The notes below the pieces were generated by a model. That model was not told the DNA's origin and did no database searches. It worked only from the letters and a program-made list of their open reading frames with translations. The position numbers were made by a program, and so were the translations under genes. From positions 48,903 through 112,902 of the forward strand of contig CAZZIU010000002.1 in NCBI GenBank assembly GCA_964654545.1: a DNA stretch of 64,000 bases, written 5' to 3'. Shown here piece after piece: positions 41,451 to 44,279 of the stretch (positions are counted from its first letter, which is position 1; each line of letters starts with the position of its first letter). This stretch comes from an uncultured bacterium (GTDB lineage Bacteria > Fidelibacterota > Marinisomatia > Marinisomatales > JABMOV01).

Positions 41451-44279
41451 ATGCTATTTAGCAGACTACCGGGTAGATTGTTTACTACCTATGTATTTAC
41501 TTATCTATCGATTGGGTATTCACAGATAATTGGTCAAAAAACCATCGCCGCCATACGTGTATCATTTATAGAAGATGTGATACAGAGTACAACTGGCAAT
41601 GGGTTGTTTCTTCTAGACGGTGACAATCAATTTTGTGGTGATTATACGATTGATCCTGTACCACATGATCGCGATTATTTTCGTTCTCAGCTTGTCGCTG
41701 TGGATTCCTATTTTAATCAGGTTTCATATCAACAACTATCTTTCGATCTTGATAATTCTGTAGTATTCCCCAAGGGTAACACAGATAGTTACCAACTTCC
41801 ACACACAATGGATTATTACCATCCCTATGGTGAGGATAACATTTCCGATCAACGACTGGCAGAATTATTCAGGGATGCTGTTGAAGCGTCGTATGATGAA
41901 GACCAGATTGATTTTTCAGCTTTTGATATTGTTGTTGTATTCCATGCTGGGGTGGGACAGGATTTTGCGTTACCATTTTTGGATCCAACTCCAGAGGATA
42001 TACCCTCGACTTTTATTGACAACGTGATGATTCAGGAAAATCTAGGCGCATCTGGTATACAGGTTGGTGGTGTTGAAATAACCGAAGGCATCCTCTTGCC
42101 GGAGACACAAAATCATCTTCTTTTTGAAGATTTAAGAGATGCGTTTGGGACTGAATTCAGTGCCTGCGAATATCAATTTGGACTTACCGGTACCTTCTCA
42201 TTAATGATGGGATTTTTACTGGGATTACCACCTTTATGGGATATCGAAACGGGACAAAGCGGTATAGGCGTTTTTGGTTTGATGGATCAAGGATCCAACA
42301 ATGGCAGGGGACTGATTCCTGCTCCTCCCAATTCTTGGACGCGCATTTTTGCTGGGTGGGAGACGGCCCTGCCGTCTAATATAGATGGAAGTTATACAGA
42401 TGTAATAATACGAAGTAAAGGCAGTACCAGAGTTGCTCAGGTTGATGAGGATGAATACTTTTTGATTGAAAACCGAAACAATACACTACGTGAAAGTGTA
42501 TCAATCGATTCGTTACGATATTTGTACTATTTACAAAACGATAATTATCCTCCCTATGTCCAAATTTTGTTTGATTCCACAAACGTTGACCGAGATACAA
42601 ACGGCGTTGTAACGCACATTCCAAATTATGATATAGGATTGCCAAACTCCGGTTTGCTTATCTGGCATATAGATGCATCCAGAATTCAACAGGGAATTGG
42701 AGATTACTCAATAAATAGTAACCCAAATGCAAGAGGTGTGGATCTAGAAGAAGCGGATGGTGCAAAAGATATTGGATTTCCATCAATTTTTCCTTTTAAC
42801 GACCCCTCTGCCGGATATTTTGCAGACATGTGGTACAAAGGGAATCAGGAGTATTACCGTTTTAATCCATATTTAAAGCGCGAAAAACTGGTATTTGGGC
42901 CCTTTACCATGCCTAACACCAGAAACAATGAGAATGTGGCAACCCATATCTCCATTGATTCAATTGGCGTTGTAAGTGATACCATGTATTTTATTGTGCG
43001 GAATGAATTTTTACAGACCGGATTTCCCATTGCTAATCTCCGTATGCACTTAGGATGGGATATTGATGGAGATGGTACAACCGAGTATATTGTTGGAAAA
43101 GATTCATTGTCTATAACAACAGATCTATTCGAAGGAGGATTATTTTTTCATGCAATTCGTGCAGATTCATTTCAAGTATTATTAACGAATTTTGAAACCG
43201 ACAATGATATTGCAATTGTTGAAATTTTTGAAGATTCGATTATGGTTTCCGTATTTAACTCGTCAGAAAATCAAGTAGAACTAGAATGGCAACAAACAGG
43301 GTTTGTGGGTAGTGATTTTAATATCTCAGGATTTCCCGACACTAACTTGGTAACGATTAAAACAAACACACAACGCTGTGTGTTTGGGCCAGACAGTGTT
43401 GCTTGTGTCGGAATTTCGGATACAAATGAAATGGCTTCTCTTAGAAGTGAGATCACCGTGGGAGGAACAACCACCGTAACCAATGTAACAGCAGCAGGAA
43501 TTGGTCGTGTAACCATAGATGAATTTGAGATTAACAATCTTGGGAGAATTCAGCAAGTTGCTATGGTGGATTTGGATATATCACAGGATGCTGAATTATT
43601 GGTGCTATCTGAAACAGGTGTTCTACATGCGCTTCATGAAAACACCACTTTTGTCAGTGGTTTTCCTTTTTCTGAAAATAATATTGAACGATTTTTGGTC
43701 CAGAATCTTTTTGCTGACGGCCACCCAGAAATTGTGCTACAAAACACGGATAAGGATTTATTTATATACAATTGGAAAGGCAAACTTCAATACCGCTTGG
43801 GAAATCCCACAGATGGTAAGTTGGTACAACTTGGTGCTTATCGCAATAAGAATGCAATCTTTACATCCGATGCTATTTGGACTTTTGATGATACCACATC
43901 CAGCTCAAACGCCTGGCCGTTGATCCATGCAGACCCGGCACAAACAAACATATTCAAACTGAATTACCAAAGTCCATTTGAAAATACATCGAGTATTCTG
44001 GATAACCGCAAAACATATGCGTATCCAAACCCTGCAGAAAATGGTTATGTAAAGATTCGGTGTACGGTGAATGATGCCGATAAAATAACATGTGAGATTT
44101 TTGATTTTGCAGGATATTTTGTAAGACGATTTACCAATAATCAGCCTGTGAATCTAAATCCCAATGAATTTTACTGGGATGTGAGTGGGGTGGAGCCAGG
44201 CGTGTATTTTGCAACAGTAAGGGCTACCAATGGGGTGACCTCTAAAAGCAAAATATTAAAAATCGGCGTACTCCAGTAA
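41451..44279 (+). CDS. T9SS-sorted M6 (immune-inhibitor-A)-like protein with a degenerate active site, FG-GAP-like repeats and a C-terminal sorting domain
   Basis: VVVFHAGVGQD and GTFSLMMGFLLGLPPLWD...GLMDQGSNNG...WTRIFAGW align to M6 G..[15 protein letters not shown], with HExxH replaced by LMxxF. DIDGDGTTEYIVG is present. The C-terminal YAYPNPAENGYVKIRC...GVYFATVRATNG...KILKIGVLQ is a Por_Secre_tail-type CTD. Confidence 0.7.
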   Translation: MLFSRLPGRLFTTYVFTYLSIGYSQIIGQKTIAAIRVSFIEDVIQSTTGNGLFLLDGDNQFCGDYTIDPVPHDRDYFRSQLVAVDSYFNQVSYQQLSFDLDNSVVFPKGNTDSYQLPHTMDYYHPYGEDNISDQRLAELFRDAVEASYDEDQIDFSAFDIVVVFHAGVGQDFALPFLDPTPEDIPSTFIDNVMIQENLGASGIQVGGVEITEGILLPETQNHLLFEDLRDAFGTEFSACEYQFGLTGTFSLMMGFLLGLPPLWDIETGQSGIGVFGLMDQGSNNGRGLIPAPPNSWTRIFAGWETALPSNIDGSYTDVIIRSKGSTRVAQVDEDEYFLIENRNNTLRESVSIDSLRYLYYLQNDNYPPYVQILFDSTNVDRDTNGVVTHIPNYDIGLPNSGLLIWHIDASRIQQGIGDYSINSNPNARGVDLEEADGAKDIGFPSIFPFNDPSAGYFADMWYKGNQEYYRFNPYLKREKLVFGPFTMPNTRNNENVATHISIDSIGVVSDTMYFIVRNEFLQTGFPIANLRMHLGWDIDGDGTTEYIVGKDSLSITTDLFEGGLFFHAIRADSFQVLLTNFETDNDIAIVEIFEDSIMVSVFNSSENQVELEWQQTGFVGSDFNISGFPDTNLVTIKTNTQRCVFGPDSVACVGISDTNEMASLRSEITVGGTTTVTNVTAAGIGRVTIDEFEINNLGRIQQVAMVDLDISQDAELLVLSETGVLHALHENTTFVSGFPFSENNIERFLVQNLFADGHPEIVLQNTDKDLFIYNWKGKLQYRLGNPTDGKLVQLGAYRNKNAIFTSDAIWTFDDTTSSSNAWPLIHADPAQTNIFKLNYQSPFENTSSILDNRKTYAYPNPAENGYVKIRCTVNDADKITCEIFDFAGYFVRRFTNNQPVNLNPNEFYWDVSGVEPGVYFATVRATNGVTSKSKILKIGVLQ

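Follow-up and report, generated by a model that had tools for sequence, protein, structure and literature searches.

We analysed a stretch of 64,000 nucleotides (nt) of DNA from an uncultured bacterium of the Marinimicrobia, or Fidelibacterota (contig CAZZIU010000002.1, positions 48,903 to 112,902; hereafter the window), in which the open reading frame (ORF) at 41451–44279 codes for a protein of 942 amino acids (aa) related to the InhA-type zinc metallopeptidases of family M6. This protein, designated here M6i, is almost certainly a pseudo-protease, and its gene belongs to a cassette of four genes kept in the same order in several phyla. [quoted passage not shown] The nearest database protein is 56 % identical. 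The features of the ORF are the following:

41451–44279, plus strand: ORF of M6i, 942 aa, an M6-like protein predicted to be catalytically dead
41451–41522, plus strand: probable Sec signal peptide, aa 1 to about 24 (MLFSRLPGRLFTTYVFTYLSIGYS, followed by Gln), read by eye from the sequence
41526–42860, plus strand: M6-like (InhA-like) domain, aa 26 to about 470 (hhalign match at aa 26–317, weak motifs extending to about aa 440)
42201–42242, plus strand: degenerate zinc site LMMGFLLGLPPLWD on helix 245–257, in the place of HExxHxxGxxD
42276–42296, plus strand: retained Met-turn block GLMDQGS (M278), aligned with InhA SLMSGGS
43008–43970, plus strand: beta-propeller, FG-GAP/ITFG2-like, aa ~520–840, recognized from an all-beta model and Foldseek matches
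44022–44276, plus strand: T9SS type A CTD, aa 858 to about 937 of 942, matched by PF18962 and TIGR04183

The N-terminus of M6i has a basic N-region, a hydrophobic core and small residues preceding Gln, a pattern common to the consensus of its orthologues, and the AlphaFold model places a low-confidence helix at residues 6–20. At the other end, PF18962 (Por_Secre_tail) matches aa 858–934 with 37.9 bits (gathering score 27) and TIGR04183 scores 32.9 bits (cutoff 23). A first-pass annotation, made from the sequence alone, had placed a clear T9SS CTD at about 44034–44276, and both models uphold it, with the domain mapped at 44022–44276. With the CTD above both curated cutoffs, export of M6i is almost certain. 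The FG-GAP-like repeats of the same annotation stand in part. In their favour, residues 520–840 are all-beta in the full-length model (predicted local distance difference test, pLDDT, 74.8), Foldseek with this model returned propellers alone, seven-bladed and including BBS9 and ITFG2 (template modelling score, TM, ~0.5 normalized to the target), and relatives of M6i from KSB1 give a strong FG-GAP match of 58 bits. In M6i itself, however, the FG-GAP-type Pfam models stay below threshold (Itfg2, 18.3 bits against 27; FG-GAP_3, 12.7 bits against 26.9).

The similarity to family M6 was recovered by several profile searches. TIGR03296 (M6 domain) matches M6i with an E of 1.3e-17 (64.6 bits, below the cutoff of 110.8). 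The Pfam model PF05547 (Peptidase_M6) is marginal on M6i (E 0.019, 14.7 bits against a cutoff of 22) and matches 11 of 18 diverse members of the M6i family, at best with 1.3e-7. A family profile of 96 sequences reaches the sequence of the InhA crystal structure 4yu5 with an E of 1.7e-4. For an independent test, genuine M6 genes were taken from six sources, namely Bacillus (InhA2), Priestia, Vibrio, Pseudoalteromonas, Clostridium and Embleya; each of them has HE[FY][GA]H, and hhalign aligned M6i with these active enzymes over 267 columns (98.9 %, E 2.5e-17), aa 26–317 of the query corresponding to residues 153–482 of InhA2. Only the broader profiles reached InhA: phmmer searches of the PDB sequences with M6i, and a search with a narrow Marinimicrobia profile, found no M6 chain, and phmmer with P0230, a family member carrying HQFGH, found no match there.

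The blocks shared with InhA (MEROPS M6; PDB 4yu5/4yu6; PF05547; TIGR03296) are collinear, and the flanking M6 blocks listed in the first-pass annotation are all retained. When the profile of the N-terminal domain (N-domain) is aligned with 4yu5, VFHAGVGQD of the M6i family falls on InhA VIHAGVGQE, giving a common HAGVGQ[DE]; the active-site helix (G..G.F......GLP) and the Met-turn (LM..GS) follow, the family pattern G..G.......G..LGLP.L....G.....GLMDQGS being aligned up to InhA SLMSGGS, and the AW..GW block of M6i also aligns with M6. Weaker but still collinear motifs continue to about aa 440, namely Y.L.E.R (YFLIENR in M6i, YYLEWRN in InhA), GL..W..D (GLLIWHID and GLVVWYAD) and GV.D.ADQ (GVDLEEADGAQD and GVVDADQ). 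The two proteins differ in that HExxHxxGxxD is wholly lost in M6i, that a large insert of InhA between the catalytic core and YYLEWRN (InhA2 ~483–644) has no counterpart there, and that M6i adds the FG-GAP propeller and the T9SS CTD. Judged by these profile alignments, M6i is truly homologous to the catalytic domain of M6.

The loss concerns every canonical position of the zinc site. Nucleotides 42183–42242 translate to LTGTFSLMMGFLLGLPPLWD, of which 42201–42242 is the segment LMMGF...WD, located correctly to the nucleotide in the first-pass annotation. Over this segment hhalign lays SLMMGFLLGLPPLWD of the active M6 enzymes, so that L251 stands at the first His, M252 at the catalytic Glu and F255 at the second His; these are the three substitutions originally proposed, and the profile alignment with 4yu5 bears them out as well. 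P261 replaces the Asp that serves as third ligand, a loss additional to those first described. No HExxH was found anywhere in M6i or in 25 aligned orthologues. The replacement motif L[ML]xGF..G[LF]PP is itself conserved, being present in all 26 Marinimicrobia orthologues, and L277, M278 and D279 are nearly invariant among the 96 diverse family members. The hydrophobic residues of the replacement motif probably fill the former metal site and stabilize the helix without zinc.

A census of 407 relatives from Marinimicrobia, KSB1, Calditrichaceae and metagenome-assembled genomes (MAGs) labelled Bacteroidota contained not one protein with the catalytic Glu and not one with all three ligands. At the catalytic position seven different residues occur, among them M, L, N, Q and K, but never E, and single ligands survive here and there (the first His in 31 members, the second His in 83, the Asp in 48). 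In the HQFGH clade, whose named members belong to KSB1, both His are kept and the Glu is replaced by Gln. An exhaustive profile search returned 6095 representatives at 50 % identity with E ≤ 1e-3, and 756 with E ≤ 1e-30; the best 150 matches include none with HExxH at the zinc site. Since no Glu occurs in the 407 relatives and the ligand positions drift from clade to clade, the inactivation is old and family-wide. The possibility of a decaying pseudogene was rejected: the ORF is intact, full-length orthologues of 900–970 aa occur in hundreds of genomes, and the N-domain retains 23 invariant and about 50 nearly invariant residues in the 96 diverse sequences. In a scan with one genome per species, relatives of M6i were present in at least 544 genomes. 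On this sequence evidence, M6i is almost certainly a pseudo-protease that has lost all of the canonical zinc-binding and catalytic residues.

The concept of a dead M6 protein is already curated by NCBI and hence is not new. The NCBIfam model NF052323 (T9SSA_dep_M6i) bears the name ‘T9SS-dependent M6-like inactivated metalloprotease’, and M6i is a divergent member of this family. It matches the model with an E of 1.5e-114 and 384 bits, under the equivalog cutoff of 600 bits, and in the best stretch only its N-terminal half is aligned (aa 27–517 on profile positions 41–544). Some relatives exceed the cutoff, among them P0162 from KSB1 (685 bits), P0195 (636 bits) and P0230 (614 bits). As in M6i, the M6-like N-domain of the family lacks HExxH and is combined with an FG-GAP-type propeller and a CTD of type A. 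The Marinimicrobia clade is the most degenerate branch of the family (L, M, F and P at the four positions), whereas both His (HQFGH), or the second one, are retained in some members. Members are labelled ‘M6 family metalloprotease-like protein’ in IMG. Literature searches found neither a paper on the NF052323 family nor a description of its gene context, and searches for the M6i family, for DUF5683 and for T9SS attachment genes in Marinimicrobia or other phyla of the Fibrobacterota–Chlorobiota–Bacteroidota (FCB) group returned nothing specific. The new element is the cross-phylum gene cassette described below, which we found described in no paper.

The cassette comprises, on one strand, a PorV-like barrel, M6i, a protein of about 1000 aa joining a gluzincin, a TolB-type propeller and an Omp85-like barrel, and a DUF5683 protein. 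The neighbours of M6i in the window are the following:

40039–41430, plus strand: PorV/PorQ-family outer-membrane barrel, cassette gene 1, matched by NF033709
44295–47243, plus strand: third cassette gene, 982 aa, with Peptidase_MA_2, PD40 and TolB-propeller matches
44652–44666, plus strand: intact HEFTH zinc motif of the third gene, with E149 in GYE as presumed third ligand
47173–48174, plus strand: fourth cassette gene, DUF5683 protein, PF18935 at 29.6 bits (gathering score 26.7)

The first-pass annotation had already set the gene between a PorV-like barrel and an active-looking zincin, as the NF033709 score of 239 bits upstream and the HEFTH motif downstream now confirm; the conservation of this neighbourhood across phyla was absent from it. 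The ORFs of the fetched loci were searched with the neighbour proteins of the window. Order and strand of the cassette are kept in Marinimicrobia, KSB1, Calditrichaceae, MAGs labelled Cytophagia or Bacteroidetes, and an unassigned clade from Joint Genome Institute (JGI) metagenomes. In every locus with room for them, after apparent exceptions had been checked, a PorV-like gene lies directly upstream of M6i and the third gene downstream; DUF5683 follows the third gene in 52 of the 53 loci with room, and is also present in L001–L003 and L084–L085. The genes flanking the cassette vary: they are shared (DctQM, BamD, NadD) inside Marinimicrobia only, and are otherwise wholly different. Within Marinimicrobia the entire region is syntenic, and such synteny alone says little.

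The barrel of the window scores 239 bits on NF033709 (cutoff 90) and 181 bits on the PorV equivalog, under its cutoff of 250. Its orthologues in KSB1, Calditrichaceae and Cytophagia-labelled MAGs reach 241–252 bits on the PorV equivalog and 50–61 on PorV2; the cassette barrel of these groups is therefore PorV or a very close relative. PorV2 (NF052325) was rejected as its identity, with 47–61 bits against a cutoff of 325, compared with 181–252 bits on the PorV model; an apparent mention of ‘PorV2’ in the literature was likewise discarded, being PorV followed by the reference number 23. The Marinimicrobia barrel contains an Asp/Gly-rich insertion of about 110 aa (aa ~283–400; DMDWDGD..., resembling calcium-binding loops) that is absent from the cassette PorV of KSB1, Calditrichaceae and Cytophagia-labelled MAGs. 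This insertion lowers the score of the window barrel to 181 bits.

The product of the third gene consists of a signal peptide, an intact gluzincin, a propeller of the TolB/PD40/Tricorn type and a C-terminal Omp85-like barrel. HExxH is present in 56 of 56 orthologues across the phyla, and E149, at least 97 % conserved, lies about 25 residues past it, which is the gluzincin arrangement. The C-terminus carries a GGGxxGLRGY motif and a terminal Phe, pointing to the Omp85 family; further support comes from Tricorn_N matches in orthologues and from a weak TamA match in the orthologue of L076. No curated NCBIfam equivalog naming this protein was found. It is unusual for an Omp85-type barrel to carry a protease where POTRA domains would be expected. 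The DUF5683 ORF as listed overlaps the third gene by about 70 nt, and its true start is therefore probably downstream of 47173. A possible link between DUF5683 and PGN_0297 was rejected, the latter being PorG, an unrelated barrel.

Some loci depart in detail. DUF5683 is followed by a second, weaker DUF5683-like ORF in the loci of KSB1, Calditrichaceae and unlabelled MAGs. In the KSB1 locus L074, an additional ORF without a Pfam match (12036–12716, about 226 aa) is situated between M6i and the zincin-barrel gene, and gaps of 400–700 nt separate these two genes in L075, L079 and L083. In L033, M6i and the zincin form one stop-free ORF (728–6409), in which the end of the CTD is joined to the next signal peptide (...KLIKIFFIFISILFGQ); a genuine fusion was rejected, an assembly indel in this MAG contig of ~3x coverage being the probable cause.

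The position of M6i beside PorV invites comparison with CTD proteins that act as components of the T9SS. In Porphyromonas gingivalis, PorU, PorZ and PorA carry CTDs and stay bound to PorV or PorQ as parts of the system (PMC8754138), and the title of a further paper (PMC8545088) also indicates that CTD proteins may remain bound as components. M6i resembles them in its large size, its secretion and its type A CTD, and its gene lies beside porV; PorZ, moreover, combines beta-propellers with a CTD, as M6i does. In P. gingivalis and in Flavobacterium johnsoniae, porU adjoins porV. The CTD profile of the M6i family matches PorU (6za2) with an E of 6e-7 and PorZ (5m11) with 1e-5, against 0.016 and 0.058 for the two cargo-type CTD chains among the matches listed, a ranking that is weak evidence given the few CTD structures held in the PDB. 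Unlike PorU, M6i lacks a C25-type cysteine peptidase domain, and it shows no significant match to PorU or PorZ outside the CTD; no PorU or PorZ family model matched it, and in its relatives NF052228 is matched by the CTD only.

We propose that M6i descends from a zinc metallopeptidase of the M6 (InhA) type that the T9SS carried and that lost its catalysis long ago. The present protein would cross the inner membrane via Sec and pass through the T9SS translocon, and PorV, the shuttle for type A CTDs, would capture its CTD. On the cell surface it would act without catalysis, with the zinc-free cleft and the FG-GAP-like propeller as putative binding surfaces; this agrees with the probable surface role in binding or scaffolding given in the first-pass annotation. 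Its most likely role, suggested by gene order, by the CTD and by the precedent of PorU, PorZ and PorA, is to serve, docked on PorV, as a subunit of the cassette's outer-membrane module. Taken as a whole, the picture of a pseudo-protease that is exported and serves as a non-catalytic surface protein docked on PorV within this module seems to us moderately probable; the docking as a subunit, considered by itself, is about evenly balanced.

Several observations weigh against this proposal. Adjacency to PorV does not prove a physical complex, and localization, binding and interaction with PorV are predictions. The NCBI name, ‘T9SS-dependent’, treats the family as cargo and not as a component. In the third protein, the gluzincin and the propeller precede an Omp85-type barrel and, by analogy with POTRA domains, would be periplasmic, in another compartment than a surface-exposed M6i. 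The assignment of the signal peptide was made by eye. M6i also remains under the curated cutoffs of NF052323 (384 of 600 bits), TIGR03296 (64.6 of 110.8) and PF05547 (14.7 of 22). Finally, the AlphaFold model of the N-domain is confident (pLDDT 93.5; predicted TM score, pTM, 0.92), yet Foldseek with this model gave zero PDB matches at E ≤ 0.001 and missed 4yu5, while among zincin-like matches ADAMTS4 ranked first with a TM of ~0.38; the M6 assignment thus rests on sequence profiles and not on a fold match.

M6i could instead be an ordinary T9SS cargo, a non-catalytic adhesin or a protein capturing peptides or proteins, anchored or released like other type A substrates and without any special relation to PorV, in which case the gene order would reflect only co-expression or inherited synteny. 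Its CTD is of the ordinary type A kind, FG-GAP/VCBS propellers occur commonly among surface adhesins, and the NCBIfam naming style is the one used for true cargo such as the T9SS-dependent M36 peptidase. However, the four genes keep their order and strand in at least four phylum-level groups with all of the flanks changing, a degree of conservation rarely seen for niche-specific cargo, and the presence of the family in at least 544 species-level genomes does not fit easily either; we regard this explanation as possible but clearly less probable than the proposed PorV-docked surface protein. It is improbable, in our estimation, that the dead M6 protein presents substrates to the downstream gluzincin, or regulates or inhibits it. 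Dead protease homologues that regulate active partners are an established pseudoenzyme pattern, and the partner gene is always adjacent, with its HExxH intact in all 56 orthologues. The predicted topologies nevertheless differ, M6i reaching the surface via the T9SS and the gluzincin facing the periplasm; the two proteins belong to different families (M6, metzincin-like, and the MA_2 gluzincins) and hence are not paralogous; and the apparent fusion of L033 is an artefact of a low-coverage contig.

A bolder form of the component idea is slightly less probable still. M6i would then be a core subunit, not a cargo, of an undescribed outer-membrane module, possibly an alternative complex for T9SS attachment or processing, where the CTD proteins are handled by a metalloprotease and not by the cysteine sortase PorU while the dead M6 holds the substrate; in Marinimicrobia, KSB1 and Calditrichota this module would sit where porU adjoins porV in Bacteroidota. 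That M6i is still an enzyme, performing hydrolysis or another chemistry through other conserved residues, appears very improbable. Residues such as H165, E218, D279, H406, E434 and D436 are invariant or nearly so across the 96 diverse members, and the N-domain region is more conserved than the propeller. But active M6 enzymes share the blocks HAGVGQE, the Met-turn, GL.VW..D and GVVDADQ as well as the PE of the strand that precedes the helix; the conserved polar blocks are therefore inherited scaffold and do not constitute a new site. Between clades, moreover, the former active-site positions drift freely, as expected once catalysis has been lost.

Elsewhere in the window, the T9SS context consists of the adjacent PorV/PorQ-family gene, the eight other large ORFs scanned being housekeeping genes or without assignment. 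The TAtT, DctP and fused DctQM genes at 36236–39937 (a transporter of the tripartite ATP-independent periplasmic, TRAP, type with a tetratricopeptide-repeat-like accessory protein) lie directly upstream of the cassette and are syntenic with it within Marinimicrobia only. A geranylgeranyl reductase family protein is encoded at 1458–2645; it passes TIGR02032, and its best matches are models of archaeal digeranylgeranylglycerophospholipid reductase, all below cutoff. It has been reported that FCB-group bacteria may make archaeal-type ether lipids (PMC7852524), which makes this gene of interest. The ORF of 1600 aa at 8960–13762 has as its sole NCBIfam match a weak local one to the lasso-peptide epimerase MslH (aa 850–954). 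As a separate observation on the M6-like region (41451–43010), Foldseek misses InhA (4yu5) despite the 98.9 % profile–profile match, which calls for caution in fold-only screening of degenerate zincins.

Annotation pipelines are likely to label M6i only as a ‘T9SS type A sorting domain-containing protein’ or, misleadingly, as an M6 metalloprotease. Protein degradation in the interior of the ocean is often attributed to Marinimicrobia, and M6i should not be counted among their extracellular peptidases. This relevance for annotation is modest, and the cross-phylum cassette is the element that deserves follow-up. A dead protease is kept under selection in hundreds of species-level genomes of the FCB group, always between PorV and an intact zincin joined to an Omp85-like barrel. 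This makes the cassette a concrete candidate, open to testing, for an outer-membrane module linked to the T9SS and so far undescribed, in phyla in which the T9SS has had no experimental study.

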